Shown in pieces: positions 3,846 to 63,922 of a stretch of DNA of 64,000 bases. Where the stretch lies: IMG/VR virus record IMGVR_UViG_3300045988_133686, positions 32,001 through 96,000 of that record; one strand, 5' to 3'. Numbering within the stretch: position 1 is the first letter of the stretch; every line of letters starts with the position of its first letter. The position numbers and the translations under genes are program-made. The DNA is from a virus. A model generated the notes under the pieces. It saw only the letters and a program-made list of their open reading frames with translations, made no database searches and was not told the origin of the DNA.

Positions 3846-5270
3846 ATGGCAAAGCCAAAGGGTAAGGTTCGCGTATCTTTCCCCGGCAACGCCTCTCATG
3901 AGGTGACTGGTTCCATGACGTTGGTCGAAACGGACGGCATGAAGATTCTGATCGAGGCAGGGCTGGTGCAAGGGGGTTCGACACTACAAGATTGGCGGAC
4001 GAACTCCCGCCACTTCCCATTTCGCCCGAACACGATTGATTATATCTTTATAGGTCACGGACACGCCGATCACATGCTGCTGATTCCGAAACTTTATAAA
4101 GAGCATTGCACCGCGAAGATTATCGCGCCGCGCGGCACTAAGGCTCTATTCGATATTATGGCACACGACTCTGCCTATATCATCTCTAAGGACGCGCAAC
4201 AGCTTCAACAGGCGTTCGGCAAATACTTTGACCCGTTCTACACCGCGGATGATGTAGATACGGCCATGGAATATTTCGAGGAGTATGACTTCGACGAAAT
4301 GGTTGAACTGCCCGGCGGTTTGCGCTTCAAGTTTATTCCGTCCGGCCACATCATTAACGCCGCGCAGATTATGTTATGGGTACCGGCGCAGCAGCACTAC
4401 GTAAAAATCGGCTATACTTCCGATCTTGGTTCCACGCTCTTCCGCCGGTACATTAACCATTTCGAGCCGATTGACAACTGCGCGTTATTAATTGGCGAGT
4501 GTACATACGCGCGAGAAACACGACCGGTTACGCCGCGCGACCGCCGCAACGACATGCTAAAGATTAAGAGTATTATCGAAACAACATGTGTCGAGAATCA
4601 CAGCAGAGTGCTCATTCCGGTGTTCAGTCTTGATAGGGCGCAGAATATTGCGTCCTTTATTTATGACCTATTCAACGAAGATGAATCGTTTGACATCCCC
4701 GTCCTGGTCGATTCCCCGCTCACCGTGAAACTTTTCCGCTATATGCTTGAGCACGCCAATCCAGAGGATACAGCTTACCTTGAGAAGGTCATGGCATGGA
4801 AAAATCTGGTGCTCATAGAAGAGTCTGAGCAATCACGCCAATGGATGGAATCCAGCAAACCGTGCGTTATCCTATCCTCCGCCGGTATGTTGACCGCCGG
4901 GCGCAGCCGTCGCTGGGCAGCATCATTGCTCCCGCAGGCCAACGCCCACATTCTCTTCTGTGGGTTTGCCACGGAATCCTCGCTAGCCGGGCAGATCAGA
5001 CATGGTTCGGATCGCAAGTATATCTCTATTGAAGGAAAGCTGCGGCGCAATCGTTGCAGTATCACTGAGCTGCGATCATTCTCCGGCCATATGGGTCGCA
5101 ATGACTTAATCAATTATTACGCTGATGTTGATACGCCCCGCATCGCACTCGTTCACGGAGACGCTGACGCGAAGATTCAGTTTGCGGCAGACCTCGAAGC
5201 CGAGATGCAGAAGCGGAATAGAACGGGGCGCGCCATCTGCGTCAACAAAGGGACTCAAATTTTACTGTAA
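3846..5270 (+). CDS. metallo-beta-lactamase fold beta-CASP nuclease (RNase J/CPSF-like)
   Basis: HGHADH motif (IFIGHGHADHMLL), a mid-protein SGH (FIPSGHIINAAQ) and C-terminal LVHGD. 474 aa. Confidence 0.85.
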   Translation: MAKPKGKVRVSFPGNASHEVTGSMTLVETDGMKILIEAGLVQGGSTLQDWRTNSRHFPFRPNTIDYIFIGHGHADHMLLIPKLYKEHCTAKIIAPRGTKALFDIMAHDSAYIISKDAQQLQQAFGKYFDPFYTADDVDTAMEYFEEYDFDEMVELPGGLRFKFIPSGHIINAAQIMLWVPAQQHYVKIGYTSDLGSTLFRRYINHFEPIDNCALLIGECTYARETRPVTPRDRRNDMLKIKSIIETTCVENHSRVLIPVFSLDRAQNIASFIYDLFNEDESFDIPVLVDSPLTVKLFRYMLEHANPEDTAYLEKVMAWKNLVLIEESEQSRQWMESSKPCVILSSAGMLTAGRSRRWAASLLPQANAHILFCGFATESSLAGQIRHGSDRKYISIEGKLRRNRCSITELRSFSGHMGRNDLINYYADVDTPRIALVHGDADAKIQFAADLEAEMQKRNRTGRAICVNKGTQILL

Positions 5271-11700: not shown

Positions 11701-12638
11701 GCATCGCTCTGGAAAACGCCCAGCAGAACCGCAATATCGCCATGATCGTCAACGGCAAATGGACGTGGAGCGCTGATCCGCAAGCCATCCAGGACGCTGT
11801 TGAAAAGATATATGACGCCGAGCAGGAGCGTGCTGACGCGCAGAGCGACTATATCCAGCAGGAAAAGCTGAACGAAATGGAAGGCTTCAAGGCCAGTTTG
11901 GAACTGGAAAAAGAAGCCGCACAGAAGGCATACGAAGATTTTGTCGAGCATATCGACAAGCTCATAGAAGCGCTTGAAGAGATGGAGTTCGCGTTCGACG
12001 AAACCATTGAGAACCTGTATGACGTAGCTGGTAAGATCGAGAGCGCGGGCAGTGCCATCGCAAGTGCTGCGGCAAGTGCGGCGGCGGCTATCTCCTCTGC
12101 TGGTGGAGGCGGCGGAGGTGGCGGTGGCGGCGGTGGTGGAGGCGACAACGGATCACCGAAAACAAAGATTGTCAGCAAACCGCTGTCCAAGTACGAGAAG
12201 CCAGGAAGCAAATATGCCGAGATCAACATTATCATTGAAGAGGATAAGAACAGCGGTAAAAAGACCGGTAAGGTATATGGCGGTTCGGGCGGCGGTGGCA
12301 AGAACCTGAACATGTATTATGCCGATGGTGGCGTCAACACACAGACCGGCACCGCCATGATGCACGGCACCCCGCGTGCCCCGGAAGTCGTTTTTAACGC
12401 AGCCGACGCCGCGAAGCTCTATGACATCATCCACAACGGTAATCCCGTCGCCGCTATGGCGGATCAGATAAAGGCTCAGGTACATAACGCTGCTGCAAGC
12501 ATGGCAAACGCTGTGCCCGAAGCGCTCCAGCCTATCCAGTATATCATTAACGGCCTCAAGCTAGGCGACGAATCCGGCAACTTGACGCTGCGACAGTTCG
12601 CCACCCAGCTCTCCGCAGCCGCCCCGTTTTTGAAGTAA
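5757..12638 (+). CDS. tail tape measure protein (2293 aa)
   Basis: Core region typical of TP901-type tape measures (GRELGATAVDVATAADTFLRQG...TALTSAMKGY...AASAGGIAKAMAETATSADMAGIS). Long coiled-coil stretches and Gly tracts (G14 at 12102-12143). Confidence 0.95.
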   Translation: MADNLEFGLKIVPDFTEFDSQIGKHKSKETIKVGIEPDTSSIDTGIRAYNKTSRNNASQLRVAISPVEPADGLQKAVDTFSGRVSLRLPIKPIVSTLRSDLNAAVAKLSSNGSSPIAIEASIKPIHINKTLQEAAKGQLFKLPVTLDINQSTLNSQIQSIQSKIVQALGTISVTPQINLNVKQSGGTSNSGGNNSGGLSYEQTLDQAKMLTQLEDFQRKYQSVLQSGGTNTVLGDELQSIIDKVNQINTGDGLTTAKREVAEIEARVKSLASAYRDASSAAQYMIKSSTTTTSDDWMSRWGEINRYIQGLDAQAQKLQSDFQTFSLPQKFVDDLKHLASAVSGRATAALGKADKNEIAGVNVDNVHRAYAQLQQVMQTPFEAQNQDYVKQYTAAIQELDSAVKILTGDLSTVKPTLASASDVSKAKADFESLGKTWSKLFSNSSLSARYTDILGKFDTEMTQAQFKALQADVAAFRSEVIAAGAATQSFGGKLKSALGQFGSFLSVASLVGYAVKGMKDMYQAAVELDTKVTDLQIASGNARSEVRAMVNEYADMGRELGATAVDVATAADTFLRQGENEANTAKLVKDALMLSKLGQIGTDESSTALTSAMKGYKVSADQAELIVDKLTAVDMEAAASAGGIAKAMAETATSADMAGISMDRLIGYLTTIKEITQSGDEETGNFFKSTLARMSNIKAGYLSDPETGEDLSNVEATLSGLGIKLRNSNAEFRNFGDVLDEVAGKWDTFSSVQQRAIATALGGTRGQEKLLVLIENYDSAMEYMDVAANSAGNAAEKYNAYLAGIEASSDSFKASFQKLSADVMNSEFVKGTYDVGTGILGFLDALVQKIGVFSTLGSGSGIASIIKNLTKKGDLLSVIGNSDLSGAISDVGQLSQAYMQLNGKQQRAYMLYNMMMKGTSGLTTAQRQNLAATVQLVRQGQTFNVTMAEAALKQEGLNEAQIQGLQLAMQNQGGLKSTTLAYRDQAMAVIEATLAGTNLDAQKKREIADLIMSKAAIDNETRSLRANATARIAMMAADPMSWLSLALMIIPQIVKGIQWLAGAQERQLETQKQNEQEMQSAFDTYDQSKDAAESYAEQIDELTQKIRELQALESSGRISLVQKDELTELRAENDELQRKLDLQQALANQDYKDAEKSFTDTLTAGHDAYIGESFGNMQAIDVVSSSVEDQIKQGVNYKSIFSGLRQAYDFFQDDLQRYNEMADDAMAAGNAKEAERLRQLAQYDEEYLKNIESKAASIVAQFDDQYWAIWDHYSGDLSKIGNTNLRDIMSWLGDAIDWVSKDATDRRVEGILNGDAYKDQVDKIKELAKSGKLTADELNNEDFDGFRKALSDVGVDIDWFIENYNRLLTLDSPDDNPSNIVNPVEAYVAKNKSDIGDALSSALSEYSNDGVVAKDTLMALDKAIPGVTNLLLDQNGEWTAAGQAILGYTDNVKGATAELYRLLIAQKQQELAQLNPRDEKYRYNEEQIKNEIDSYQAALDNLRANWRDEITTALSSINSDSDILAQAINDLNDGTFEEWDSEFVETLLDAFPDLADEIEAFADGTMDAKDLIEEMQDAADASAWDDFLEALDAVNSAVEEYGEDSYQVQEALENLESIVPGVSALFYTEDGALTDVGQAAILAADGHIDAAEAMLQSALVAAQLDLSNIVNEWNAVTQAANQAAIAGINASYSQQYNNASKKVADIKKLLDNLGKKGLGGGGGSRRGGGGGGSSKKDVLEDYKNQKKILEHRADMSKSAQDLMREDTDEWRVEQQKQYDIYREYAAMIQAEMERLRKLGYDSESEELMQLESDLAKVKKQMYSLQKEAWKSQQDAQIKALKKQKDAAKEAWEAEKERLEGEIDRQEALIGLLEKQYDLTNNLRDQRTDLAKQLASSKSYIGLSEEERKSLFSDEDYAQLMGVLDDIQREAIIAYNEYTEQIKSVNTDEAYKLDYITQQYEAQYELMNKKYAIAVQDLAVARARIALENAQQNRNIAMIVNGKWTWSADPQAIQDAVEKIYDAEQERADAQSDYIQQEKLNEMEGFKASLELEKEAAQKAYEDFVEHIDKLIEALEEMEFAFDETIENLYDVAGKIESAGSAIASAAASAAAAISSAGGGGGGGGGGGGGGDNGSPKTKIVSKPLSKYEKPGSKYAEINIIIEEDKNSGKKTGKVYGGSGGGGKNLNMYYADGGVNTQTGTAMMHGTPRAPEVVFNAADAAKLYDIIHNGNPVAAMADQIKAQVHNAAASMANAVPEALQPIQYIINGLKLGDESGNLTLRQFATQLSAAAPFLK

Positions 12639-33528: not shown

Positions 33529-33604
33529 ATCGTCCGAGGTAGAGATGTGCTTCTACACCCCGTTGCGGGCAAAAGAGATGCGGGACTTGGCACACCCGCC
33601 GGAC

Positions 33605-33641
33605 AAAAAAAAAGAAGGGGCGCTTATTGCGCCCCTTCTTT
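33605..33641. terminator. bidirectional hairpin terminator (stronger for the integrase strand)
   Basis: A9 run, stem GAAGGGGCGC/GCGCCCCTTC (33614-33623/33629-33638), then TTTAC. The minus-strand reading gives the stem plus T9. It overlaps the integrase stop. Confidence 0.7.
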
Positions 33642-34775
33642 ACGATTATCAAGTTGTTGTGATACGCCCGCCACACTAGTTGACTGCACATTCGTTAGGA
33701 GGTGTGTGTAAATACGTCCGGTGATGTCCGGCGAACTATGACCGAGAGCCTTGCTGGTATCAAAAAGGGTCACTCCGCTCTGATTCGCAAGCGACGCAAA
33801 TGTGTGCCGCAATCCGTGCAGCGTAATATGCGGAAGATTGTATTTGCTCACAATCTGCTGAAGCTTTGCAGATAGATAATTGGGGCGTCTTGGTCTTCCG
33901 TCATCGTGCTGTATAACGTACCCGCCGTTGTGGTATTGCGCTCCATAAATGCCCTTCCACTCTTCCTGGCGTTGTCTTTCTCCAAGCAAAACTTCCCGCA
34001 GCGTGCTAGGCATCTGAAGCTTTCTATACGACGAGCTAGTTTTAGTCTCCTTTTCTATAATGGTACTACCGGCTGACGTGCGCGCGTCACATATTAAGAT
34101 GGTATTGTTTGTGAAGTCTATCGAACTCCATCTCAGGCCAGATATTTCTTCGCGGCGTAGCCCTAAATACCCTGCAATAAAAACAACTGGCTCCATCCAC
34201 GTGCCCTTAACCGCTCTGAAAAGCGTTTGCAACTGTTCGGCTGTATAGATGTCTGGTTCGCTCACAATTTTTTTAGGTGGCATCGTCTCCTTCACATAAT
34301 TGCGGTAAGCATACTTCATCATCACCGCGTAGTCAAATATAGAACTAAGCAGGTTGTAGTGCTTAATAACCGTATTAGGACTAAGCTTCTCCAACGCCCG
34401 CGCATAGTATTGTTGGATGTCCCGCGCCTTGATGTCTTGTATAGGGAGCTTCCCAATTTTATCTTTGAGCAGATGATTGCGCACGATCTGTTCATATCCA
34501 TAATAAGTCGTGTGCGCTATCTTTGGTTGGGCCACTGTTTTTAGCCACTCCTGAATTACATCTCCTAGAGTAATCCTACGCGGCGACAAAGTATCCCCGT
34601 GATCCTTATTAGCGTCAAATTCACGCTTGGCCGCTCTAGCCTCCTTTAACGTTGAGTAGGTTTTGTACTTGCGGATAAATTTCCCGTTACCGTCTCGACC
34701 GTATGTAAATGCAACATAATACAGTTTTCGGTCGATGTCATACGAGATTCCTTCGGCAATTTTTTCTCTAGCCAT
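33624..34775 (-). CDS. int: tyrosine site-specific integrase
   Basis: RBS aaggaggt. C-terminal HGLRHTFASL...LGHSSPDITGRIYTH catalytic motifs. 383 aa. Confidence 0.95.
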   Translation of the reverse strand: MAREKIAEGISYDIDRKLYYVAFTYGRDGNGKFIRKYKTYSTLKEARAAKREFDANKDHGDTLSPRRITLGDVIQEWLKTVAQPKIAHTTYYGYEQIVRNHLLKDKIGKLPIQDIKARDIQQYYARALEKLSPNTVIKHYNLLSSIFDYAVMMKYAYRNYVKETMPPKKIVSEPDIYTAEQLQTLFRAVKGTWMEPVVFIAGYLGLRREEISGLRWSSIDFTNNTILICDARTSAGSTIIEKETKTSSSYRKLQMPSTLREVLLGERQRQEEWKGIYGAQYHNGGYVIQHDDGRPRRPNYLSAKLQQIVSKYNLPHITLHGLRHTFASLANQSGVTLFDTSKALGHSSPDITGRIYTHLLTNVQSTSVAGVSQQLDNRKEGAQ

Positions 34776-35866: not shown

Positions 35867-36346
35867 TTATGAGATTTTTTTTGCATATTGATTGCCGGAC
35901 GCTAGGTCTACGCCAAGTGTGTCGTCAAACCGAGGACACATCGTTGGTATATATCGCCCAAACTTTATAATCACGTTTGGGTACTGTGACAGGCGCCGCA
36001 CTTGGTCATTCACTTCATGCTCGTAATAGCCCGTATAAATAATAAAGGTGTCCATACACCCATTGTCCCGGAACGTGCGCAATAGTGCGAGCACCTCGTC
36101 TATCTGCAACATCGGTTCGAGGCCGCCGATCACGACAGCTTCTGTGATGTCGTTGCTTTGATAGAGTTGATAGAGTCTTTTGTCATCAATGTTATAAGCG
36201 CTGCCGAACAGGTCATGGTTCTGACAAACAGAGGGCGGAAACCCGCCCTCCTTACAACACTTAAAGTCACATGATACAGAACCGATGAACAAACTTGGCT
36301 TCTTATAGTTGACAAAATCCTCAACTACAATGCCGCTCACCCTCAT
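35867..36346 (-). CDS. nrdG: anaerobic ribonucleotide reductase activating protein-like (radical SAM, small type)
   Basis: Cys-rich N-terminus [19 protein letters not shown]. 159 aa. Overlaps the nrdD stop (ATGA). Confidence 0.75.
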
Positions 36347-38277
36347 TTGAGGTCATCTCCAACAACGTCAAACCAGTCTCGCATCGCGAACTCCGCTTTG
36401 CGCTCTTTGGAATATGTTTTTGTAGGAACGAGGAATCCTACGATACGCTGGTAAGTCGTTTCCATTGGTTCACCACACACAGGGCATGTCTTACCATAAA
36501 ATCCGTGATTATGCTTGCAAGCGCTGATTCTGAGGTTAAAGGCGAAATACTGTACGCCAGCATCGGCGACATAATTTAACATCTTCCACGCAGTGTCAAA
36601 GTCCTTGAACGGTGCGTCAATGTTTACGTGCATGATCGAACCACCATTACACGCTTTGTCAAGAATCGCACTCAGTCGAATCTTTTCATATAGTGTTGTC
36701 TTTACACCAAGTGGAATCCACTGATTACCATACAAAGGCAGCTCGTATGCTTCATTTGGGAATAGGAGTTTGTCCTTCTGCATAAGTACCGCTGCCGCGC
36801 GCTCACCGGGGATCTGCTCGATGTTAACCATATAAGACTTATCTGAAGTGAATGCAGCCTTGGCCTCGTTGAGCACAGACATAACATCCGTTGCACATTC
36901 CAACCCCGCATCTGTGTACGTCGTGTTACCAAACTCATCAGTAATGGTAAACCCATACTTCTGAAGGGCTTCGTACAGCCCAATAATACCGATTGTATTA
37001 TACTGTTTATCCATGTGCATGATTCCCAAAGAATAGTTTGGCAATAACCCCTTCTCCACATTGCGCTCAATAATATGCCTTACGCAATCAAGAGCCTGCA
37101 TACACAGCAACGCTTTCTCGCTCAGAGCTTCCATATATTCTTCAGTGGTATCACATTCATACGCGAGTCTAGCAAGGTTGATCGTATTAACCTTCACACT
37201 ACCCACCTCAAGAGCTGTGCCACCGATGCTATTGAAGTAACCGAGGTTCTTTACGTCTGAAACCAAGCGGCAGCAGTTGCTGAGGCTTGTAACGTCGTCG
37301 CTAATAAAGAAGTTGCTGTCACCCCACTGCATATTGTGTTCGCAGCACCATTGAGCGAAGCCTTCATCAACAAACCTGCCGTCCTTGCGAAGAAGCGCAT
37401 ATGTAAGCACGGGGAATGTCATCATGTTCTCCATTCGAATCTTACTTACCACACGCATAAACGCCTTCTGGTATTCCAGTATCTCGTCAATATAGTCAAT
37501 GATAAACGTGCCGTCTGGATACTCTTTGCCTCCGAACAACGCCTCAAGGTACGGGCGGTCAAAGATCGAAATGTTTGTGAAGGCTGACTGGATACCGCCG
37601 CGCAGGAATGGCTGGTTTAAGCGATAGATGAATTCTTGGAAGTGCTGATCTCGATAATACTCTGGGTCACGAAGGACGTAATTCTCCGCGCAATCTTTGT
37701 GCCAGAAGTAGAACGAGTAAATCAGGAAGCTTGGTAGACCAACCGCACCGGAAGAACGATTACACGTCCAACTCACGAACTCTCCGATAAAATCTGTGAA
37801 CGTTGTGAGATGCTGTGGCGGTGTAGCGTTGAAGTTATTAATAAAAAATAGCCCACGCTCAACAATATTCGCGATATCATAAGCAAAACAATAAGACTTC
37901 TCCGTTGCGTTATACGCATCGTGCAGATAAAAATGTCCGTTCCATTCGTTCTCTAGCCATTCCCTCGCAACTTTACGTCCATACTTCTTATTGAGTTCGT
38001 AGTAGATTTTGTTGAACGCCAGCAGCTTAGAATGTGGCTTGCTCATCTCGTTTTCGAGAGAAACAATATCCTTATGCCCGACGTTTGCGTTGCCGTCAAT
38101 ACTCGCATCTGCGACCGTCTGCTTGTCTACAAAGTTGTCAATGAAGTCAGTGTAGCTCAACTGCTCATCTCCGAAGCCATTAAGCGCGGCCATATCGGAT
38201 CCATATTTGTCCTGCATCTGATTATATGCGGTTGTGAAGTCCTTCAGGAGCCTGATGTCAATCTTCATGCCATACAC
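36343..38277 (-). CDS. nrdD: anaerobic (class III) ribonucleoside-triphosphate reductase
   Basis: 644 aa. C-terminal zinc site CKHNHGFYGKTCPVCGEP and the glycyl-radical-type end RIVGFL. Confidence 0.9.
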   Translation of the reverse strand: MYGMKIDIRLLKDFTTAYNQMQDKYGSDMAALNGFGDEQLSYTDFIDNFVDKQTVADASIDGNANVGHKDIVSLENEMSKPHSKLLAFNKIYYELNKKYGRKVAREWLENEWNGHFYLHDAYNATEKSYCFAYDIANIVERGLFFINNFNATPPQHLTTFTDFIGEFVSWTCNRSSGAVGLPSFLIYSFYFWHKDCAENYVLRDPEYYRDQHFQEFIYRLNQPFLRGGIQSAFTNISIFDRPYLEALFGGKEYPDGTFIIDYIDEILEYQKAFMRVVSKIRMENMMTFPVLTYALLRKDGRFVDEGFAQWCCEHNMQWGDSNFFISDDVTSLSNCCRLVSDVKNLGYFNSIGGTALEVGSVKVNTINLARLAYECDTTEEYMEALSEKALLCMQALDCVRHIIERNVEKGLLPNYSLGIMHMDKQYNTIGIIGLYEALQKYGFTITDEFGNTTYTDAGLECATDVMSVLNEAKAAFTSDKSYMVNIEQIPGERAAAVLMQKDKLLFPNEAYELPLYGNQWIPLGVKTTLYEKIRLSAILDKACNGGSIMHVNIDAPFKDFDTAWKMLNYVADAGVQYFAFNLRISACKHNHGFYGKTCPVCGEPMETTYQRIVGFLVPTKTYSKERKAEFAMRDWFDVVGDDLK

Positions 38278-45477: not shown

Positions 45478-45553
45478 TGGAGCTGGGTAGGAGACTTGAA
45501 CTCCTAGTCTACGGAGTACAAAACCGTGGCTTTACCAATTAAGCTAACCCAGC
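45478..45553 (-). tRNA. tRNA, anticodon UGU (Thr) by manual folding; CCA encoded
   Basis: Cloverleaf: GCTGGGT/ACCCAGC acceptor, GCTT/AAGC D-stem, anticodon loop TTTGTAC, AGGAG-TTCAAGT-CTCCT T-arm. 31:39 is a U-U mismatch. Confidence 0.75.
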
Positions 45554-45554
45554 G

Positions 45555-45628
45555 TGGAGCCTCCAGAAGGAATCGAACCCTCACTGACTGATTACGAAAC
45601 AGCCATTCTACCGTTAAATTATGGAGGC
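45555..45628 (-). tRNA. tRNA, anticodon CGU (Thr) by manual folding; CCA encoded
   Basis: GCCTCCA/TGGAGGC acceptor, anticodon loop TTCGTAA, GAGGG-TTCGATT-CCTTC T-arm. 31:39 is a U-U mismatch. Confidence 0.7.
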
Positions 45629-45701
45629 ACAACCCAGCGTCCGAAGAACATCGTTGCGCACCGACGAGTTTCTCATAAAGAGCATAACTCACTGGGTCTA
45701 C

Positions 45702-45778
45702 TGGTGGACTCTCTGGGACTTGAACCCAGGCGCGACCGCTTATGAGGCGGGTACTCTAACCAACTGAGCTAAGAGTCC
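45702..45778 (-). tRNA. tRNA, anticodon CAU (Met, or Ile2 if lysidine-modified); CCA encoded
   Basis: GGACTCT/AGAGTCC acceptor, GCTCAGTTGGTTAGAGT D-arm, anticodon loop CTCATAA, CTGGG-TTCAAGT-CCCAG T-arm. Confidence 0.8.
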
Positions 45779-45781
45779 ATG

Positions 45782-45855
45782 TGGCAGAGGTGGCCGGGAT
45801 CGAACCGACATTAACAGGGTCAAAGTCTGTTGTCCTGCCGTTGAACGACACCTCT
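45782..45855 (-). tRNA. tRNA, anticodon UUG (Gln) by manual folding; CCA encoded
   Basis: AGAGGTG/CACCTCT acceptor, anticodon loop CTTTGAC, GTCGG-TTCGATC-CCGGC T-arm. 31:39 is an A-C mismatch. Confidence 0.7.
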
Positions 45856-46993: not shown

Positions 46994-47286
46994 ACCGCCA
47001 CCTCCTGATCCTGAGCTGAGATCGCCAAGGTCACATCTCGCAGCATTAGGTAGTCAATCATGGGGTATCTATCATCGTCATATCTATCGTCTGCGGTTTG
47101 TACGCCGATCATAATGCCTTCGCCAGTATCTACAATTTCGGTGATATACACAAACTCGCAGACTGCATCTGGATCGGTTTTATCTGTCCACAGCCTGACA
47201 ACTTCGTCCTTATGTTTTTCGTGCCACTGTTCAAAAGTCACTTTGATTCCTCCTAAAAAATGTATTGATATCCGGTTATCCACCAA
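46990..47286 (-). CDS. hypothetical protein
   Basis: 98 aa. Packed between the polymerase and downstream small genes. Confidence 0.55.
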   Translation of the reverse strand: MVDNRISIHFLGGIKVTFEQWHEKHKDEVVRLWTDKTDPDAVCEFVYITEIVDTGEGIMIGVQTADDRYDDDRYPMIDYLMLRDVTLAISAQDQEVAV

Positions 47287-50200
47287 TACCCGCTCTTGTC
47301 CTGACGCATATCGCCGCTTCCAACCTCGATAAAGTCTCCTTCTTTGAATGGAAATTGCTCAAATGTGCCGGGGCGAATGCTCACGCGCGCTGTCTTACCG
47401 CTGCCGAGCGATTTGCAGTCCACGCGGTAACACCACACGCTGCCTGTCTTACGACTTGTCAAGCCGATTGGCTTCGACGTGATGATGAGTTTGCCACGGT
47501 CTGCTTTTTGCCCAGTGACCAAATCGACGTAGCCGAGACGTTCCTTTTGTAGGGACGCCTTTTGCTCTAGTGACAAGTCGCGGATGTCAAGCGTGCGTTG
47601 ATGCGCTTCGTATTCGTATAGGATTGCCGGTAGGTCTATTATAGCATAAGATTTGGCTTCTTTTCCCGCCTTGGTCTTATCACTTGCGTGCGGGCGGATA
47701 AATTCTTCATAAATGCCCGCCTTGGTTTTTGCAACACTCTTTGCATCGCCCCACTTGAAGAAGTCCAAGCAGTCAACAATGTTATTAAGCAATGTAATTG
47801 GGCCGAACTCCGCAAAGAAGTCAATGTCGATGAGGGCGGCACGCTGATCTGACCGCAGGCTGGTTTCTTTGGTGCAGGCCAACATAACGTCCGTGAACGT
47901 GTCCCAATGCGGGCGGCTGTGTGCAAGCTCATACAATTCGTTAGGCACAGTCGCATTCAAACTCTTGACGGATGCCACGCCCTTAGTGATAGTGCGCGCC
48001 TCGACGTCCATGAAATAATCGCTCTTGGAATGCCCCCAGCGCGGCGGCAGAATTGGTATCTTGTATGCTCCAGCGAGAGCGGCGCCGTTCGCCACGTCGT
48101 CATCATTGGCAGCGTTGTTCAGCAGCGCGGTGATAAATTCCAGCGGATAATGATAACGCAGATAGGCGCATAAGTAACCTACCATACAGTAAGCTATTGA
48201 ATGGTTAAAACCAAACATGTAACTCGATGCGTCCTCAATAATCTTAATGAATTCTTTTGCTTCGGCTTCCGCTTCCTCGCGCGACTTGTCCGATTTGGCA
48301 CAGTACCCGTCGAGTATCTTGGGCATTGCTTTCTCTAGGATCTCTGGCTTTTTACGGGCAATACCGCGTCGCACAGTGTCAGCTTCACTCCCGCTGAATC
48401 CGCAAATTTCAGTCAGGAACTTAATGACGTCCTCCTGATACACAAGATAACCATTGTTGTCCGCTAGGAGATCATCGATCAGTTTTGACGGGTTATGATG
48501 CTGCTTATGTCCAAGCAAGTCGTCTCGGTATGACGCGCCGGACGGGCGAATACACGCTGTCACCAGTGACATACCGAAGATATTGTGCGGCTTAAACTTT
48601 CGCAAGCTGTCGCCCGCATACGGAGACTCCATTTGGAAGATAGCCGTGGTGTTCCTCCGCATATCCTCCCAAACCTCCGGCTCATCCCAATTAATCTCGT
48701 GTGCTCTCGGATATGGAATACCTACTAACTTGCAAGTATCCGCGATAATCGCCACATTGCGCAAGATCAGGAAATCAAACTTCGCAAGACCCGCTCCATC
48801 ATGAATCTCATCCATGTCGATCTCCAGACATGACATATCGTCTTTGTAGAATGTGCCGAAGTTATCCGTAAGCGTTATGGGCGAGATAACAATACCCGCC
48901 GGATGAACAGACTGCGATACCTTTGTGCCAACCAAGCCATCATAATAATAGAAGAGGTCTTTATACTTTTTCTTCGTCCCGTCCGGATCGACGCTATACT
49001 GCTTCTTGATGTCGTCAACCTTCTTCAGCGAATACGGACACTCCTGCGTGTTCATGTCTGGATGTGCTTTCTGCCATTTGGAGGCTAATGCGCGGCCAAT
49101 ATCATCAATCGCAGCCTTGTCTGCAATGGTGCCGTAAGACGGTACGCGCGCCGTGTATGCTTCACCGAATCTATTGATGATGTATTCGAAGATGCGCGGT
49201 CGGTCGGTATCAATGACGTCAATATCAATATCGCCAATCTCCACGCGATCTTCGTTTGCAAATCGAGAAGCGACTGTTTTCCATATCGTAGGATCAACAT
49301 CTGTAATGTCTGTGATATAGGCAATAGTAGAACCGCACACCGAGCCACGACCTGGCCCAACAGGAATACCATTGTCGCGGCACCAGCAGATCAGCTCACT
49401 CATGATGAGCATAAATCCGCACATGCCGATCTTAGTGAACACCTTCTTTTCGTCCTCGATATTCGCCCGCACCTGGTATAGCCTCTCCGGTGGAATAATA
49501 CCAGCAGCAACCTTCTGCGCCAGCATATCGTCGATGCGCGCGAACCATCGTTCTCTGTCAGCTTCGGCGCTGCCATAAAGAATCGGGTATTTGATGCTCG
49601 GATCAATCGGCACATCCTCTACCATATCAGCCAGCCTATTGGTATTCTCTATCGCTTCGCGCCACTTGTTTTCCGGAATGGCGTCCTGCACGCGGAACAT
49701 CTCAGCTAGTTCATCATAGGATTTATAAGTAAGATCAAACTCGTCCTCCTGCGCAAACTCGATCTTCTTGCTGGCTAACAAGATTTTGCGGCACTCAGCT
49801 TTGTACTGATTCAGTGAGTGTGTATCTGTGCCCGCGATCAGTGGCTTCCCGTACTGTTCGCTCATAAAAAGCAAGCGCTGGTTGTATTTGCTCTGGTCGA
49901 TGTTGTTGTGCGGCTGGATCTCGTAAAAGTCGTAATGCCGCGCCAGTTTTTCGTATATCTTATTATCGCCTTCATATTTGTTGAGCGGTGACGCAAGGCA
50001 AGCACTAATCTTGATAACATTGTCCGAGATGCCAAGAAATTCATCAAACGTAATACGGTTCTTATAATAGAAATGATTCGCGTCCGTTGATGCCATAATC
50101 AGCTTATTGATCTCTTTACGCCCCTGCTTGTTACGGGCAATCAACACTGTGTGGTAATTGTCGCGGATTTTTTCCTCCCCGATTTTCTCGGTTAAATATG

Positions 50201-50426
50201 CTTCGACCCCCCACAGAAACTTGATGCCCTTGCTCTCACAGTACATCTGTTTACGCATCCAGCCGATCGGGCGGCCATGCTCGGTTGAGCCGATCGCCTT
50301 TTGACCAAGCTCAACCGCGCGGTCAACATAATCCTCGAAATGTGTGCAGGAGTCCAGCAAACTGTAATCCGAGTGTACATGGTAAGCAACGTAGTTACTC
50401 AGCTTTATCACCTCCAAATACTTCAT
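47253..50426 (-). CDS. dnaE: DNA polymerase III alpha subunit (DnaE-type, PHP N-terminus)
   Basis: YHVHSDYSLLDS PHP motif and about 1050 aa of colinear DnaE-like sequence. The exact start is uncertain: a GGAGGTGA lies inside the listed 5' end. Confidence 0.9.
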   Translation of the reverse strand: MKYLEVIKLSNYVAYHVHSDYSLLDSCTHFEDYVDRAVELGQKAIGSTEHGRPIGWMRKQMYCESKGIKFLWGVEAYLTEKIGEEKIRDNYHTVLIARNKQGRKEINKLIMASTDANHFYYKNRITFDEFLGISDNVIKISACLASPLNKYEGDNKIYEKLARHYDFYEIQPHNNIDQSKYNQRLLFMSEQYGKPLIAGTDTHSLNQYKAECRKILLASKKIEFAQEDEFDLTYKSYDELAEMFRVQDAIPENKWREAIENTNRLADMVEDVPIDPSIKYPILYGSAEADRERWFARIDDMLAQKVAAGIIPPERLYQVRANIEDEKKVFTKIGMCGFMLIMSELICWCRDNGIPVGPGRGSVCGSTIAYITDITDVDPTIWKTVASRFANEDRVEIGDIDIDVIDTDRPRIFEYIINRFGEAYTARVPSYGTIADKAAIDDIGRALASKWQKAHPDMNTQECPYSLKKVDDIKKQYSVDPDGTKKKYKDLFYYYDGLVGTKVSQSVHPAGIVISPITLTDNFGTFYKDDMSCLEIDMDEIHDGAGLAKFDFLILRNVAIIADTCKLVGIPYPRAHEINWDEPEVWEDMRRNTTAIFQMESPYAGDSLRKFKPHNIFGMSLVTACIRPSGASYRDDLLGHKQHHNPSKLIDDLLADNNGYLVYQEDVIKFLTEICGFSGSEADTVRRGIARKKPEILEKAMPKILDGYCAKSDKSREEAEAEAKEFIKIIEDASSYMFGFNHSIAYCMVGYLCAYLRYHYPLEFITALLNNAANDDDVANGAALAGAYKIPILPPRWGHSKSDYFMDVEARTITKGVASVKSLNATVPNELYELAHSRPHWDTFTDVMLACTKETSLRSDQRAALIDIDFFAEFGPITLLNNIVDCLDFFKWGDAKSVAKTKAGIYEEFIRPHASDKTKAGKEAKSYAIIDLPAILYEYEAHQRTLDIRDLSLEQKASLQKERLGYVDLVTGQKADRGKLIITSKPIGLTSRKTGSVWCYRVDCKSLGSGKTARVSIRPGTFEQFPFKEGDFIEVGSGDMRQDKSGYWWITGYQYIF

Positions 50427-54389: not shown

Positions 54390-54412
54390 AGATATCCCAA
54401 GTTGGGATATCT
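54390..54412. promoter_or_regulatory. 23-bp perfect palindrome AGATATCCCAAGTTGGGATATCT, copy 2
   Basis: Identical to copy 1. It overlaps the stop of the FNT-like gene. Confidence 0.8.
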
Positions 54413-55013
54413 AAATCAAATAACGATGGACAGTTCTTGCGCCAAGAGTGTTGCCAAGCAGCGCCGCGAAAAAGAACAGCGGTGCGCGCCACCAAGTTAT
54501 ATCCGCTACCGGAACACACAACATATAATAGAAGAAATCGGCAATACTGTGCTCAAATCCGGAGAGAATAAAAGTTGTTACGCAAAAGGTAATGATGAGA
54601 ATCTTGCCAGCCGTATCGGTGGCCGACATCGAAGCTCGAACGGCTGTATACATTAGCACGCCACAGCAATACGCTTGAGAAAAGACGACCACCCACGACT
54701 TTGTGAGTTTTGCTTGGACGAGCGGCAATGCCACGCATGTGATATCCTCATTGGTTGCGTTCACAAGGATAGCACACGCCACCGCTCCGCAGCAGTTTCC
54801 AAGTAGAATCCAAAATACATCTTCCCAATCTTGCTTATGCTCGACAAAGCCAATACTTCCTGTGAAAAGTTTCGCCCCGGTCAATACAATGCTATTAAGG
54901 GCAATAGAAAAGAGCACTGCCGCAAGAATCGGTTGCTCTTTGAAAAGCGTGAGATAAATAGTGCCTCCGATACCAATGAATAGGCCGCCGATCACGCCGC
55001 GCTTAATCATCAT
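54411..55013 (-). CDS. formate/nitrite transporter (FNT) family-like channel protein
   Basis: GFEHSIADF (FNT GFEHSIAN signature) and VLTGAKLFTGS (FNT signature-1-like). Multiple TM segments. Start at ATG 55013 (GGGGAG RBS). 200 aa. Confidence 0.7.
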   Translation of the reverse strand: MMIKRGVIGGLFIGIGGTIYLTLFKEQPILAAVLFSIALNSIVLTGAKLFTGSIGFVEHKQDWEDVFWILLGNCCGAVACAILVNATNEDITCVALPLVQAKLTKSWVVVFSQAYCCGVLMYTAVRASMSATDTAGKILIITFCVTTFILSGFEHSIADFFYYMLCVPVADITWWRAPLFFFAALLGNTLGARTVHRYLI

Positions 55014-55374: not shown

Positions 55375-55890
55375 ATGGCAGTATTCGAAATCGGTCAACC
55401 TTCTCCGCTCGGCAATACCATACCAGAAGGTGCAATCTGCGATATCGACGATAGCGGGTTACTCGTCGTGATGAACTTTGGAGTACCAACACTTGACGAA
55501 CGCGCTGCATTTAAGACGGGCGCGCCGTATGAGTTCCGGCTCGTTAGGCTGCGCGGTGTATTATTCCTGCTGGCGCGTCTTGGCTCTATGCCATGGACAG
55601 ATATGCCGTACAGTCCGCATCTCAGTAAATGCTCTGAGTTCCAATTCCCTGCGCCGAACACAGGCTATGCGACGACAACGGTGCTTATTGATAGTCGGTC
55701 GCACATCGTGCGCGGGCTACGATTGATTGGACTTAGCACCTCTTTTTCCGCAAAGTTGTATGAAGAGGTAGTCGCCGATTTGCAGAAGCCATTCGATCAT
55801 GCGGAATACCTGCAAAACATTAACGACGTTTACAACGCATATTCCACAAAAGATATGCTGCGATATAGTTTCGCGGCTTGTAAAGGCTGA
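55375..55890 (+). CDS. hypothetical protein on the opposite strand to its neighbours
   Basis: RBS gaggtga, own promoter and terminator. 171 aa. No motif recognised. Confidence 0.7.
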   Translation: MAVFEIGQPSPLGNTIPEGAICDIDDSGLLVVMNFGVPTLDERAAFKTGAPYEFRLVRLRGVLFLLARLGSMPWTDMPYSPHLSKCSEFQFPAPNTGYATTTVLIDSRSHIVRGLRLIGLSTSFSAKLYEEVVADLQKPFDHAEYLQNINDVYNAYSTKDMLRYSFAACKG

Positions 55891-55916
55891 GGACGGTATT
55901 ACCCGTCCTCTTTTTC
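55889..55916 (+). terminator. rho-independent terminator
   Basis: Stem GAGGACGG/CCGTCCTC followed by TTTTT. Confidence 0.75.
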
Positions 55917-56336
55917 TATAAAAAATTGTCGTATACTTTCCGGTGTGATCTCTGCTTTGCCTTGATGGTACGCATCTATCCACGGTGTTTGGCGCTGTGT
56001 TATTTCGGTTAGCATGGAAGACGAATATGCGCTACACGCATCAACGATGTGTTCAATCCTCCTTTTGTCTGCTGATGAAAACTTATATGATATGTCATTC
56101 CTCGGCGGATAGATAAACGAATTGCCGTAAATATCATACTTCATATACACGCACGGAACCACCGGTCCAAAACTCCACGCTTCGATGCGCTCAAGGAAGC
56201 ACTGTTTTTGCGCGCCAACTAAAAATTCAGCTTGAATATAGTATAGTATTTTTTATAACTTCAAATTTGTTACGATATTGCCTTGCGTGTAAGCATAATA
56301 AATAACATATTCAGCAATTTCTTGTACTTTATACAT
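55899..56336 (-). pseudogene. DUF4065/Panacea (SocA-like antitoxin) domain gene interrupted by an in-frame TAA at 56253-56255
   Basis: The single frame reads MYKVQEIAEYVIYYAYTQGNIVTNLKL*KILYYIQAEFLVGAQKQCFLERIEAWSFGPVVPCVYMKYDIYG... The stop falls where the family has LKLQKLLYY. The listed ORF 55899..56162 is only the distal part. Confidence 0.6.
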
Positions 56337-56342: not shown

Positions 56343-56681
56343 TCACATGCAAAGTCGGTCATCCTCGCAAGAATCATTACCGCCTGCCAATTCTTTCAGC
56401 CGCTCCTCCATTCCGTCAAAGCAATGGGTGACATCATTCACAAACTCTGCTTCTGTCTTCCCGTGAAATTTCAAGTTGTAACGCACGAACCGCTGAAACT
56501 CAGGCGTAATATCATCCGGCCACTCTCCCGCACAGGCAACACCAGAGACAATCAAATCATAAGGCTCGTAATGATGAGCTGCGCAATCATCACAACACCA
56601 ATACGACAGGGAACCAAAGGCAGACGGCATAGCAAATACACCCTCCTTTTTCCCGCACACTTCACAGATTTCATTGTCCAA
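56343..56681 (-). CDS. Cys-rich hypothetical protein
   Basis: 112 aa. CEVCG...WCCDDC zinc-binding-like N-terminus. Confidence 0.6.
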   Translation of the reverse strand: MDNEICEVCGKKEGVFAMPSAFGSLSYWCCDDCAAHHYEPYDLIVSGVACAGEWPDDITPEFQRFVRYNLKFHGKTEAEFVNDVTHCFDGMEERLKELAGGNDSCEDDRLCM

Positions 56682-56700: not shown

Positions 56701-56946
56701 TTATTTCTTACTGGCATAACTGCAATAATCATCCGCGCACACTTCCATGCTGCCAAGGAGTCGCGTACACCAATGCTTATCGAGCAGTATATCCGGCTTA
56801 TCCCACTTACAATCTTGGCAGGTAGTCGGTAGACGCATAGCTACCTCTCTTAATAGATCCCCCATATCAATAGGAATCTCCCATTCATTCGCATCGCACC
56901 AATCTGCATATTCGGTAAGCTTTGCAATTAACTCTTTATTTGTCAT
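56701..56946 (-). CDS. hypothetical protein
   Basis: 81 aa. CQDCKWDK...WC...CADDYCSY Cys-rich C-terminus. Confidence 0.55.
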   Translation of the reverse strand: MTNKELIAKLTEYADWCDANEWEIPIDMGDLLREVAMRLPTTCQDCKWDKPDILLDKHWCTRLLGSMEVCADDYCSYASKK

Positions 56947-56948
56947 TC

Positions 56949-57128
56949 TTATTTTCCTTCCTGCAAACTTAATTCATAGCATTTTCTACACATTGTTTCT
57001 AGTATTTGAAAATATGTCTTATCTCTAGTAAATTTATTAAAATAAGACTCTACGTCACAGCCACATACTATATATACAGGCTCATTATGCGCTAATACCT
57101 TACCACATTTTGTGCAGATATTTATCAT
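56949..57128 (-). CDS. 59-aa zinc-ribbon protein (below track cutoff), tandem paralog of 57125..57331
   Basis: MINICTKCGKVLAHNEPVYIVCGC...MCRKCYELSLQEGK. ATGA overlap with the upstream stop. DNA similarity is visible (CCTGCAAACTTAATTCATAGCATTTTCTACACATT vs CCTGCATACTTAATTCATAGCATTGTCTACACATT). Confidence 0.55.
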   Translation of the reverse strand: MINICTKCGKVLAHNEPVYIVCGCDVESYFNKFTRDKTYFQILETMCRKCYELSLQEGK

Positions 57129-57331
57129 TCTTTACACGCCTCCTGCATACTTAATTCATAGCATTGTCTACACATTAATCCTAATATCTGAAGATTCGAT
57201 GACGAGCCGCCCATTCCACCTCTAGTAAAATCCTCAGAATGGAAATCTACGACGCGGCCATACGCCATGTATACAGGTTCGTTATGGGCGAATACCTTAC
57301 CACATTTTACGCAAGTATTTGGCATTCTCAT
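57125..57331 (-). CDS. zinc-ribbon protein, tandem paralog
   Basis: MRMPNTCVKCGKVFAHNEPVY...MCRQCYELSMQEACKE. Confidence 0.6.
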   Translation of the reverse strand: MRMPNTCVKCGKVFAHNEPVYMAYGRVVDFHSEDFTRGGMGGSSSNLQILGLMCRQCYELSMQEACKE

Positions 57332-57351
57332 TTTCCTCCTGCATATTTAAT

Positions 57352-57576
57352 TTATAGAATTGTTGGATATCTTATTTCGTATGTTGCGTACGCACCAGTT
57401 TCTTCACACCGAACCTCAATGAACTGCGGCCATTTCTCATATGGGTTATATTGTTTACAAGGTATAATTTTCAAGTTAGCAAAATGACTTTGCTCACACT
57501 CTTCGCAATCACTCTTATCGCTGTATATAGCGCCGCATATCTCACAAACATATTTTGTTTCTACTTTCATCAACAT
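57352..57576 (-). CDS. zinc-ribbon protein
   Basis: RBS aaggag. CEICG...CEECE motif. 74 aa. Confidence 0.6.
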   Translation of the reverse strand: MLMKVETKYVCEICGAIYSDKSDCEECEQSHFANLKIIPCKQYNPYEKWPQFIEVRCEETGAYATYEIRYPTIL

Positions 57577-57649
57577 TCATCTCCTTAATCTCTTTATTAA
57601 CTATTATAGACCAGTACGGCAATAATCTTGGCGCTGAACTCATAAATAT

Positions 57650-58036
57650 TCAAACGTTCCTGACATCTTCCGTCCTGCGCGCCAGCATAATTCGATCATT
57701 GGCGGCCTTGGTCTGCAAGCTGCCATTTTCGTAACGAGCAATGGCATTATCATCCTCTCCAACCATACGAGCAAATGCAACTTGCGAAATGCCGTATTGT
57801 TCACGGATGGCCTTGATTTCTTCTGGCTGCAAAAGCCCGTGGCGACTGCGATATTTTGCATAGGCTTTACGGAGATTGTCATCATCGTATTCTTCGGTCA
57901 TGATTTCCTCACCACAATGCGCGCACGTGCAAACGGTTGCATCAATGGTGAATGGCTCTCCTCTCACAAGATATGTTTCTTCTTTCTGGACAAGAAGCAT
58001 CTCTTGTTCACAGTTACAGACGGGACAATACTTCAT
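57650..58036 (-). CDS. MqsA-like protein: YgiT-type zinc finger plus XRE HTH (regulator/antitoxin family)
   Basis: CPVCNC...CTCAHCGEE zinc finger, then IKAIREQYGISQVAFARMVGEDDNAIARYENG HTH. Confidence 0.72.
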   Translation of the reverse strand: MKYCPVCNCEQEMLLVQKEETYLVRGEPFTIDATVCTCAHCGEEIMTEEYDDDNLRKAYAKYRSRHGLLQPEEIKAIREQYGISQVAFARMVGEDDNAIARYENGSLQTKAANDRIMLARRTEDVRNV

Positions 58037-58197
58037 TTTTTATTCACTATCCTTTTTAAGAGTTCAAGCCAACAATCTCTACATAAATCACCAGTAGTAC
58101 CAGTAGAGAGACTTCCATTTAACTTATAAGTTATAGTGCCATCTTCTCCATAATACATAATTTCCTTTCCACATCTATCGCAGAATGTTTTAATCAT
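58033..58197 (-). CDS. 54-aa zinc-ribbon protein (below track cutoff)
   Basis: MIKTFCDRCGKEI...DLCRDCWLELLKRIVNKK. ATGA overlap with the MqsA-like start. Confidence 0.5.
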   Translation of the reverse strand: MIKTFCDRCGKEIMYYGEDGTITYKLNGSLSTGTTGDLCRDCWLELLKRIVNKK

Positions 58198-58346
58198 AAT
58201 TTCTTCATTTTTCCTCCGCTGATAAAAAACTTATGCAAGGCATCAATTGGTGTACAAAACATTAAGAGTAAACGTAAGCGCTGCCATTCAGTAAACTTAC
58301 AGCCGAGCAGTGTCTCACAACAATCAATATCTCGTTTCGTTATCAA
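58194..58346 (-). CDS. 50-aa hypothetical protein (TTG start; below track cutoff)
   Basis: AGGGGGG plus 9 nt before TTG 58346. ATGA overlap with the next gene. It fills an otherwise empty 168-nt gap. Confidence 0.35.
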   Translation of the reverse strand: MITKRDIDCCETLLGCKFTEWQRLRLLLMFCTPIDALHKFFISGGKMKKL

Positions 58347-58365
58347 TAAATAATACCCCCCTAAT

Positions 58366-58626
58366 TTAAGACTGAACTAAAACCGCAGGTGGAAATTTGT
58401 CAACTACGCTCCAGTCTAGTTCTTGCCCACAATACGGGCATCTTTCTAGCTCGCGCGCCCTCAAATAATATCTATTATCGTAATCTTCATAACCGTCGAA
58501 AAAAAGCCTTCCGCATCTGGGGCATTCGAACGGGTTCCATTTTTCTGCAACAACACACATCGGACGGTTAATATCTTCCAAGGCTTGTGCGTAACCCCGC
58601 TGAAAATCCGATATTGAATCCGTCAT
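58366..58626 (-). CDS. zinc-ribbon protein
   Basis: RBS AGGGAGA before ATG 58626. CPRCG...CPYCG. Confidence 0.6.
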   Translation of the reverse strand: MTDSISDFQRGYAQALEDINRPMCVVAEKWNPFECPRCGRLFFDGYEDYDNRYYLRARELERCPYCGQELDWSVVDKFPPAVLVQS

Positions 58627-58646
58627 ACTTATTCTCCCTATGACCA

Positions 58647-58937
58647 TTATTTCACACCATAACTGCAAAAATCATCTGGATATACGCCTTCATCCCATTG
58701 CGTACACCATAAAACTCCTTCAACATACAGGTTTTCTCGACTATCTTCTCGATTTAACTCACGGCAATTACCACAATCCTTACACCGTGTCACCGCCACT
58801 GCATCAACAGTTGGCGCGGCATCTATCAAGGTGTGCATTAGTCGAATTGCTGTTCCACCCGTTACTGACCAGTCCTCATCAGATATGTTATATGGTTTGA
58901 CGCGGGCGCGCATCAAATCAGCATCAACAAGTCTCAT
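58647..58937 (-). CDS. Cys-rich hypothetical protein
   Basis: 96 aa. CKDCGNC...WC...FCSYG. Confidence 0.58.
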   Translation of the reverse strand: MRLVDADLMRARVKPYNISDEDWSVTGGTAIRLMHTLIDAAPTVDAVAVTRCKDCGNCRELNREDSRENLYVEGVLWCTQWDEGVYPDDFCSYGVK

Positions 58938-63538: not shown

Positions 63539-63922
63539 TTAACCTATTTTAACACGCCGTCTTCTCATAATTTCGAAACTGGACACCGCCGCTCCAACCT
63601 CAAGTGGCTCATAGCAGAATACTCGTAGGAACCCATTTGGAGTGCAATCAATTACCCAATTTTGCTCCAGATTATCTCTTTTCCAGTTTCCAATCCCATC
63701 TAGGTGTAGTGCATCGGAGCACCCGCCCATACGGCATACTGCATGGCCTTTGTTACATGCAGCAAATGTCATGTTACCCCACCCACTATCGTGTATCGAC
63801 CTTATGTCGGTCGGATAAATAATCACGCTATCAAACGCTGGTGCTTCCTCTTGGCTGTACGGCGTCCAATACGGCAAATTCTCGAAATCGTCCATGGTCA
63901 TTCTCATAATATCCGTTTCCAT
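63539..63922 (-). CDS. hypothetical protein
   Basis: GGAGGG plus 5 nt before ATG 63922. Palindrome copy 3 lies 29 nt upstream. Confidence 0.6.
   Translation of the reverse strand: METDIMRMTMDDFENLPYWTPYSQEEAPAFDSVIIYPTDIRSIHDSGWGNMTFAACNKGHAVCRMGGCSDALHLDGIGNWKRDNLEQNWVIDCTPNGFLRVFCYEPLEVGAAVSSFEIMRRRRVKIG

Follow-up and report, generated by a model that had tools for sequence, protein, structure and literature searches.

A probable recent null allele of an orphan Panacea-domain gene in a temperate gut phage

The 64,000-nt stretch of viral DNA analyzed here (referred to below as the window) belongs to a temperate tailed phage of an anaerobe, with genes for an integrase (33624-34775) and NrdD (36343-38277); its host is best explained as an anaerobic gut bacterium of the Clostridia type. 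A blastn search with 1.9 kb around the locus of interest found no match among 50,697 GenBank phages, and the phage is thus one without a sequenced isolate relative. The locus centers on a Panacea-domain gene interrupted by a stop codon (Table 1), which lies in a long minus-strand block in the early/replication region of the phage. The order of this block is small Cys-rich ORFs, an MqsA-like regulator (57650-58036), a 112-aa gene, the Panacea gene, a break, and then a 103-aa gene followed by genes for a formate/nitrite-transporter-family protein, ERF, an SSB-like protein, a PD-(D/E)XK nuclease, a primase-helicase, and Pol III alpha. The break consists of a single plus-strand gene of 171 aa, whose intrinsic terminator hairpin is embedded in the last codons and the stop of the Panacea gene.

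Table 1. Coordinates of the interrupted Panacea gene, its neighbors, and the phage tRNA-Gln in the window
Feature	Position in window	Strand	Remarks
Panacea-domain (PanA-like) gene	55899..56336	-	145 codons and a terminator; in-frame stop at codon 28
Premature ochre codon TAA, Q28*	56253..56255	-	CAA to TAA, single C-to-T transition
27 codons still translatable from native ATG	56256..56336	-	Helix 1 and first turn of helix 2 only
GPV motif codons (G57 P58 V59)	56160..56168	-	3' of stop, so untranslated from native ATG
Residual 87-codon ORF from internal GTG	55899..56162	-	From ORF list
Convergent 171-aa gene	55375..55890	+	Function unknown, phrog_12389; constant downstream neighbor in lineage
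Intrinsic terminator hairpin of 171-aa gene	55889..55910	+	8-bp stem, then TTTTTCTATA
Upstream 112-aa Cys-rich gene	56343..56681	-	6 nt from Panacea ATG; no family; intact in window
Phage tRNA-Gln, anticodon UUG	45782..45855	-	Cognate for CAA, near-cognate for UAA; not a suppressor

Read in one frame on the minus strand from 56336 to 55899, the gene translates as MYKVQEIAEYVIYYAYTQGNIVTNLKL, a single internal TAA, and then KILYYIQAEF...EKEDG up to its terminator, which is also TAA; the interrupted 145-codon frame claimed in the original prediction was confirmed in every detail by this translation. The base that follows the premature codon (+4) is A. The residual GTG-start ORF that had also been pointed out is present in the ORF list, at 87 aa, and its GTG (56162..56160) is the sole in-frame restart codon found there 3' of the TAA.

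With Gln substituted for the TAA, the window protein matched the Pfam family SocA_Panacea (PF13274; DUF4065) at 49.1 bits (E = 1.2e-12; gathering cut-off, 25.7 bits). The match aligns residues 27 to 119 with profile positions 1 to 112 of 113; the stop, at codon 28, therefore falls inside the matched region. Thus, the proposed Panacea/DUF4065 identity held up in an HMMER-type Pfam check, and it did so for the concatenated translation across the stop; the 87-aa fragment alone scored 17.9 bits, under the cut-off. Judged by profile score and GPV motif, the gene satisfies the sequence definition of a Panacea protein. Among PHROGs, it was assigned to phrog_1281 (function unknown; E = 6e-36). The NCBIfam SocA_antitoxin model (NF047745) gave a partial match, over residues 4 to 77, of 58.4 bits versus an equivalog cut-off of 190, ruling out a SocA orthologue.

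A protein search yielded 403 homologues, nearly all of them ∼145 aa long with PF13274; the close homologues all carry a precomputed PF13274 match. In an alignment of 56 natural homologues, Gln occupies position 28 in every one, as expected when the TAA was first noticed, and N24, L25, L27, K29, and G57-P58-V59 are likewise invariant. In other strains, the syntenic position is occupied by one intact 145-aa gene, to which the 27 codons 5' of the stop and the 117 codons 3' of it show 93 to 99% protein identity, so the resemblance of both flanks to Panacea is not due to chance.

These other strains, ∼12 in number, carry the same temperate gut phage, and all those examined read CAA at codon 28 of an intact, syntenic 145-aa orthologue. 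They comprise L001/L060 (IMG/VR UViG_3300045988_128406), L045 (ERZ779895), L046 (OIZT01000039.1, whose fetched stretch ends at codon 96 of its Panacea gene), L047 (a contig of a Hadza-gut "Eubacteriales" MAG), and the Logan contigs L042, L043, L064, L065, L067, L068, L069, and L071. They are distinct genomes, with 88 to 97% DNA identity around the locus. In addition, 39 sequences from dozens of contigs make up the cluster, at 90% identity, to which the intact protein belongs, and all listed members are 145 aa long. By sequence comparison, the ancestral state is shown to be one intact 145-codon ORF with CAA at codon 28. The homologues are single ORFs and not pairs of genes, and the truncated products expected from the TAA allele (87 or 81 aa) are absent among 15 billion proteins.

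The stop would remove most of the protein. We modeled P0001, which is 94% identical to the window protein, with AlphaFold from the 56-sequence alignment (pLDDT, 93.4; pTM, 0.90). The model has a helix at residues 4 to 17, a long central helix at 24 to 42, strands at 51 to 54 and 57 to 59, and five further helices; Q28 lies near the start of the central helix, and the GPV motif forms the second strand. In PanA, central helix 2 lies beside strand beta-2, which carries GPV, and the G62A V64S double substitution in this motif abolished neutralization (PMC8832971). The predicted P0001 topology appears to match that published for PanA, a central helix with about five helices around it and a small three-strand sheet. 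No comparable solved structure came up when the PDB was searched by sequence and by fold (best E = 0.88), while BFVD gave TM-scores of ∼0.77 to unnamed phage proteins of ∼147 aa and a weak match to an annotated Panacea protein.

Because Q28 sits at the start of the central helix, the product of the native ATG would be a 27-residue peptide that ends before both the complete central helix and GPV. The restart GTG coincides with V59 of GPV, so the 87-aa product would begin within the motif, without its G-P, and would have neither helices 1 and 2 nor strand 1; judging from the model, such a re-initiated product is unlikely to be functional. One could nevertheless imagine that the two halves give separate products, or that the C-terminal fragment started at GTG 56162 keeps function, since this in-frame GTG is preceded by GGAG ∼10 nt upstream. 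We find this scarcely credible: the fragment lacks the structural elements just named and scores below the Pfam cut-off, its homologues are all single ORFs of ∼145 aa, and the 15 billion proteins include no such product.

The same TAA is present in two further assemblies, retrieved by exact-sequence look-up of the neighboring 171-aa protein, and it is limited to this one genome lineage (window/L062/L066). L066 (Logan, SRR3993044, 85 kb) and the window show 100% identity across 14.3 kb; in 18.6 kb of L062 (ENA ERZ28594631, LIUW16-1_SAMN05414971, 101.6 kb), one base departs from the window, at window position 63837. Both represent the window's own genome, assembled by two pipelines (an ENA scaffold and a Logan contig), probably from one sample. 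The agreement of the pipelines at this base rules out an artifact of the assembler, though a fault in the reads themselves would pass this check; a pure assembly error is accordingly unlikely. We also carried out a homologue-guided scan for stops over ∼16 kb (47.9 to 64 kb of the window), in place of a list of same-frame ORF pairs one stop apart that was too noisy. Q28* was the only window-specific mid-gene stop in ∼25 syntenic genes (the other stops flagged were N-terminal ORF over-extensions or antisense-frame positions), indicating that the window assembly is not generally error-prone.

A consensus error could take another form: the TAA might be a sequencing error or a minority variant, the phage population of the sample really carrying CAA and an intact gene. 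C-to-T is the commonest type of damage or error, the allele comes from one genome lineage and probably one sample (SAMN05414971 for L062, SRR3993044 for L066), and its truncated products were found in no other assembly. Yet L062 and L066 agree at the TAA though they differ from each other at another base in 18.6 kb, no other gene in the ∼16 kb compared has a lesion, and Panacea genes of this class gather real lesions in other strains (see below). An erroneous or minority TAA is therefore improbable. When the other strains serve as outgroups, the private codon changes in the window's Panacea copy are one synonymous change and Q28*, which is its sole derived non-silent change; this places the stop at the very tip of the tree, without further decay. 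Thus, the proposal of a single CAA-to-TAA change, arising as a recent nonsense mutation or strain variant, agrees with what we found: relatives all have CAA in an uninterrupted 145-codon gene.

The original prediction had also allowed for translational readthrough or suppression at the TAA. Read with the standard code, the window has a coding density of 93%. Its ORFs run without interruption for as much as 2,293 aa, and it uses TAA as terminator more often than either other stop (37 of 83 ORFs); these features rule out genome-wide recoding. The window encodes four tRNAs on the minus strand (45478-45855), Thr-UGU, Thr-CGU, Met, and Gln-UUG, and L060, a CAA strain, has the same four; no tRNA with a stop anticodon was found in the 64 kb scanned of the ∼100-kb genome. 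Programmed recoding is excluded by the standard code with TAA as its commonest terminator, together with the lack of a suppressor tRNA and the occurrence of the stop in no other strain, and we see no basis for readthrough or suppression as originally suggested.

The tRNA-Gln of the window differs from that of L060 by one base, at canonical position 39 (window 45818), where C creates an A31.C39 mismatch in place of the A31-U39 pair that closes the anticodon stem; owing to this single-base difference, the exact pattern of the window tRNA-Gln had no match in viral contigs. Position 39 is C in the window, L062, and L066 (all Q28*), in L063 (E141* in its Panacea gene), and in L065, and is U in L060, L064, and L067, all three with an intact Panacea gene. 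Since the gene is intact in L065 too, C39 is a polymorphism that does not go with the TAA alone, and we rejected it as a change linked to the stop.

Basal readthrough deserves separate consideration. Of the bacterial stops, UAA leaks least, and both RF1 and RF2 recognize it; its main near-cognate misreader is tRNA-Gln(UUG), the strongest +4 context is U, and Gln insertion at UAA is documented in suppressor-free E. coli (PMC5289835, referring to Nilsson and Ryden-Aulin 2003). The phage itself encodes a tRNA-Gln(UUG), Gln is the wild-type residue at codon 28, the +4 base is A and not the strongest context, U, and C39 occurs in both ochre-bearing lineages (window and L063), so one might propose that this tRNA, perhaps aided by A31.C39, yields enough functional full-length protein by readthrough. 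We regard this as highly unlikely. Both release factors act on UAA, the anticodon is an ordinary UUG, CAA strains share the tRNA set, C39 accompanies an intact gene in L065, TAA ends many genes of this phage in the ordinary way, and the absence of the stop from other strains gives no sign of selection for it. Basal readthrough at Q28* would produce at most a trace of wild-type protein. A broader version of the idea, in which the C39 form of the phage tRNA-Gln(UUG) acts as a weak ochre suppressor via first-position wobble, restoring Gln at Q28* and buffering nonsense mutations in accessory genes, seems to us most unlikely.

The Panacea gene is under weak constraint, or evolves fast, and has suffered repeated damage, as expected of a dispensable accessory gene. 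Summed over 12 strains, its private codon changes are 23 non-synonymous, 11 synonymous, and 2 stops; the corresponding numbers for the neighboring 171-aa gene are 3, 13, and 0. With site counts taken from a pairwise omega analysis, these changes give a rough omega of ∼0.5 for Panacea versus 0.07 for the 171-aa gene. In L063, E141* is accompanied by S55G and F56S beside the GPV motif; E141* costs the protein just 5 residues, a loss that may be harmless, and the L063 lesions are mostly G-to-T or C-to-A, which sequencing damage could also give. L061 has lost GPV through an in-frame deletion of 189 nt; this is weak evidence, coming from a 540-nt contig at 2x coverage. The 23:11 ratio could also reflect diversifying selection in an arms race instead of relaxed constraint.

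Could either adjacent gene encode a toxin neutralized by the Panacea protein? The 171-aa protein is 98.8 to 100% identical across strains, with omega values of 0.02 to 0.06 (for example, 30 synonymous and 2 non-synonymous differences from L043). It has no match in Pfam, PADLOC, NCBIfam, or PDB sequences and no PHROG function. Panacea is missing from the surroundings of its few distant homologues, which adjoin an integrase gene (L058) or an AcrVA2-like gene (L059). We rejected it as a toxin partner on the basis of these distant relatives and the lack of a toxin-family match. The 112-aa protein has neither a family match nor a transmembrane segment, and its gene was disrupted independently in two strains, L063 (a 1-nt insertion and two stops) and L068 (Q63*). 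PADLOC gave no match for the Panacea protein or its neighbors.

The arrangement itself is suggestive of a local pair, whose toxin would be one of these two genes and whose loss of antitoxin would be consequential for the phage or the lysogen: throughout the lineage, Panacea invariably has the 112-aa gene 6 nt upstream and the extremely conserved 171-aa gene next to it, and in L063 the 112-aa and Panacea genes decayed together. However, in the window both candidate toxin genes are intact while the antitoxin is null, and in L068 the 112-aa gene carries Q63* but Panacea is intact. Neither candidate has transmembrane segments or matches a toxin family, the 171-aa gene occurs elsewhere without Panacea, and the normal partner in this subfamily is downstream and co-directional. 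A local toxin-antitoxin pair is thus very unlikely, and neither gene behaves as an obligate toxin partner.

What such a normal partner looks like is evident from homologues outside the lineage. In those with ∼50% identity (P0021 and P0076), Panacea is located at one end of a prophage and is followed directly by a 332-aa gene with a hydrophobic C terminus, often with a 4-nt overlap. More generally, of 49 loci fetched from outside the lineage, 37 have, directly 3' of Panacea, a co-directional ORF of 240 to 435 aa with 2 to 6 predicted transmembrane segments, whose start lies between -20 and +15 nt from the end of the Panacea gene. Panacea is thus the first of two genes there, the layout of PanA-PanT. 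One major class of validated PanT consists of membrane toxins (PMC8832971), and standalone Panacea directly neutralizes transmembrane toxins (PMC10440598). A tblastn search found no homologue of the transmembrane partner anywhere in the window, and none of the window-lineage strains has a downstream membrane-protein gene in the loci fetched; in the window, no co-directional ORF follows Panacea, the next gene being convergent. The absence of this gene from the lineage makes the Panacea gene an orphan, and the earlier observation that no obvious toxin partner is adjacent was right. Both an adjacent co-directional toxin gene and an intact antitoxin frame, features of a PanAT module, are lacking from the window (TAA at codon 28 of 145). 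A Panacea homologue carried by a phage (integrase, NrdD, ERF, primase-helicase, and Pol III alpha) without a cognate toxin is, on the other hand, what is seen with orphan antitoxins.

The locus is therefore a broken, orphan, phage-borne PanA-like gene, and not a case of recoding, a split gene, or a new system. We consider it likely that Q28* is a real and very recent null allele, or a young pseudogene, of a dispensable orphan Panacea gene. The intact orphan product may bind and neutralize a PanT-like membrane toxin that the host or a resident prophage supplies; where no such toxin is present, the gene would be dispensable and its loss neutral in such hosts. Because Panacea would be dispensable without a target toxin, a nonsense allele could arise and persist at no cost. 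A specific counter-defense role for the intact gene is possible, and we put it forward tentatively by analogy. The original prediction described phage copies as suspected counter-defense factors, a statement for which the Panacea papers (PMC8832971 and PMC10440598) provide no source and which we take as an analogy with other orphan antitoxins; nor do these two papers report an orphan phage Panacea protein that neutralizes a host toxin. Phage orphan antitoxins do act in counter-defense against DarTG1 (PMC11825919).

Taken alone, Q28* is a nonsense allele of an ordinary kind, specific to one strain of a metagenomic phage. Its importance is chiefly one of annotation, in that the locus should be entered as a disrupted Panacea gene, neither as two small ORFs nor as evidence for recoding. 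Beyond this, a lineage of ∼13 strains with a toxin-less Panacea gene, in which intact and null alleles both occur, amounts to a natural experiment on counter-defense by orphan Panacea. The closest partnered relatives of the orphan gene would guard prophages with putative membrane toxins.

Several known systems resemble the locus in part. For comparison we used the PanAT systems of Kurata et al. 2022 and Ernits et al. 2023. The PanA proteins of these type II systems (Bartonella choladocola/apis PanT-D11:PanA; Gelidibacter mesophilus toxFtsL-D9:PanA) are, like the window protein, single-domain, ∼145 aa long, and endowed with GPV. PanAT systems with membrane toxins appear to share its predicted topology, and relatives of the window protein with ∼50% identity have a multi-transmembrane gene directly 3'; the window lineage differs in having no downstream membrane-protein gene, and the window copy ends at codon 28. 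The 240- to 435-aa partners seen here recall PanT-D11 and toxFtsL in gene layout. Caulobacter SocA, a type VI antitoxin that serves as a ClpXP adaptor for SocB, has the Panacea/DUF4065 domain in common with the window gene. The latter, however, falls far short of the SocA equivalog cut-off (58 bits versus 190) and has no SocB-like partner; a proteolytic-adaptor mechanism is not implied.

T4 Dmd (which acts against RnlA/LsoA) and the NADAR/DarG-like AdfB (against DarTG1; PMC11825919) are also phage antitoxins without a toxin, early or accessory genes of variable presence or integrity; they belong to other protein families than the window's Panacea gene, and we infer the likeness in counter-defense. 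The MqsA-Panacea fusions (Bacillus fungorum MqsR-D2:PanA and phrog_10390) recall another feature of the window, which has both an MqsA-like zinc-ribbon/HTH protein (the regulator gene upstream, 57650..58036) and a Panacea protein, but in which a toxin like MqsR was not found. The phrog_10390 profile matches each of the two over its corresponding half, although in the window they are encoded by separate genes, between which lie 1.3 kb and five ORFs.

Constraint in the neighborhood of the Panacea gene falls most strongly, by far, on the convergently transcribed 171-aa gene (phrog_12389). Between strains, its protein is 98.8 to 100% identical while the flanking DNA is only 88 to 97% identical, and strain comparisons gave omega values of 0.02 to 0.06. 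The Panacea gene contains, at its 3′ end, the terminator of the 171-aa gene. The protein's distant homologues adjoin an integrase gene at one locus (L058) and an AcrVA2-like gene at another (L059). The 171-aa gene is the single plus-strand gene interrupting a long minus-strand early block.

Features of the window discussed here
Feature	Position	Strand	Remarks
Metallo-beta-lactamase/beta-CASP/RMMBL nuclease-like gene	3846-5270	+	474 aa
2,293-aa ORF	5757-12638	+	close behind the 474-aa nuclease-like gene
"Skipping-rope" sRNA motif	33529-33607	+	Rfam RF02924; 57.9 bits (gathering score, 36.7)
Integrase gene	33624-34775	-	
tRNA-Gln(UUG)	45782-45855	-	canonical position 39 = 45818
Pol III alpha gene	47253-50426		one ORF, 1,057 aa
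Formate/nitrite transporter family gene	54411-55010	-	PF01226; ~199 aa in relatives
171-aa gene	55375-55890	+	phrog_12389
112-aa Cys-rich gene	56343-56681	-	directly upstream of Panacea gene
Run of ~nine small ORFs	56701-58668	-	50-100 aa
MqsA-like zinc-ribbon plus HTH protein	57650-58036	-	128 aa; PF15731, E = 1.4e-13

The small early genes upstream of the Panacea gene seem to form a stretch prone to natural knock-outs. The 112-aa Cys-rich gene is independently disrupted in two other strains: the L063 copy (L063:10969-11308) carries a 1-nt insertion as well as TGC>TGA and GAA>TAA changes, and the L068 copy carries Q63*. Gene content of the small-ORF run beyond it differs between strains; many of these ORFs encode paired, zinc-ribbon-like CxxC motifs, and none of the roughly nine in the window received a family assignment.

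Canonical position 39 of the phage tRNA-Gln(UUG) is polymorphic between strains, being C (an A31.C39 mismatch) in the window and the two other assemblies of its genome (L062 and L066), L063, and L065, and U (paired) in L060, L064, and L067. Both strains with Panacea ochre mutations have C39, as does one strain whose Panacea gene is intact, numbers too small for inference.

Several other elements of the window are worth recording. The RF02924 motif directly adjoins the integrase gene. The formate/nitrite transporter family gene, which sits within the phage replication/recombination block and is missing or replaced in L001, L065, and L068, is unusual membrane-channel cargo for a phage. The Pol III alpha gene is a single 1,057-aa ORF in L062, L066, and L067, as in the window; it is called as two ORFs (741 to 746 aa plus 310 to 338 aa, separated by 150 to 300 nt) in three other strains (L063:1645-5038, L064:1588-5062, and L065:2151-5559). 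An intron, insertion, or disruption could account for the arrangement in those strains, as could an intein remnant.

Two prophage PanA-PanT-like modules outside the lineage show the reverse of what is seen in the window: their Panacea genes are intact, and it is the partner, the 332-aa membrane protein, that is split or truncated (195 plus 118 aa and 132 plus 189 aa) at L049:4442-5451 and L051:4442-5439. As for the MqsA-like gene, no MqsR-like toxin was seen in the window. The PHROGs family phrog_10390 (299 positions) is an MqsA-like domain fused to a Panacea domain, whereas the window encodes each in a gene of its own, with 1.3 kb between them.
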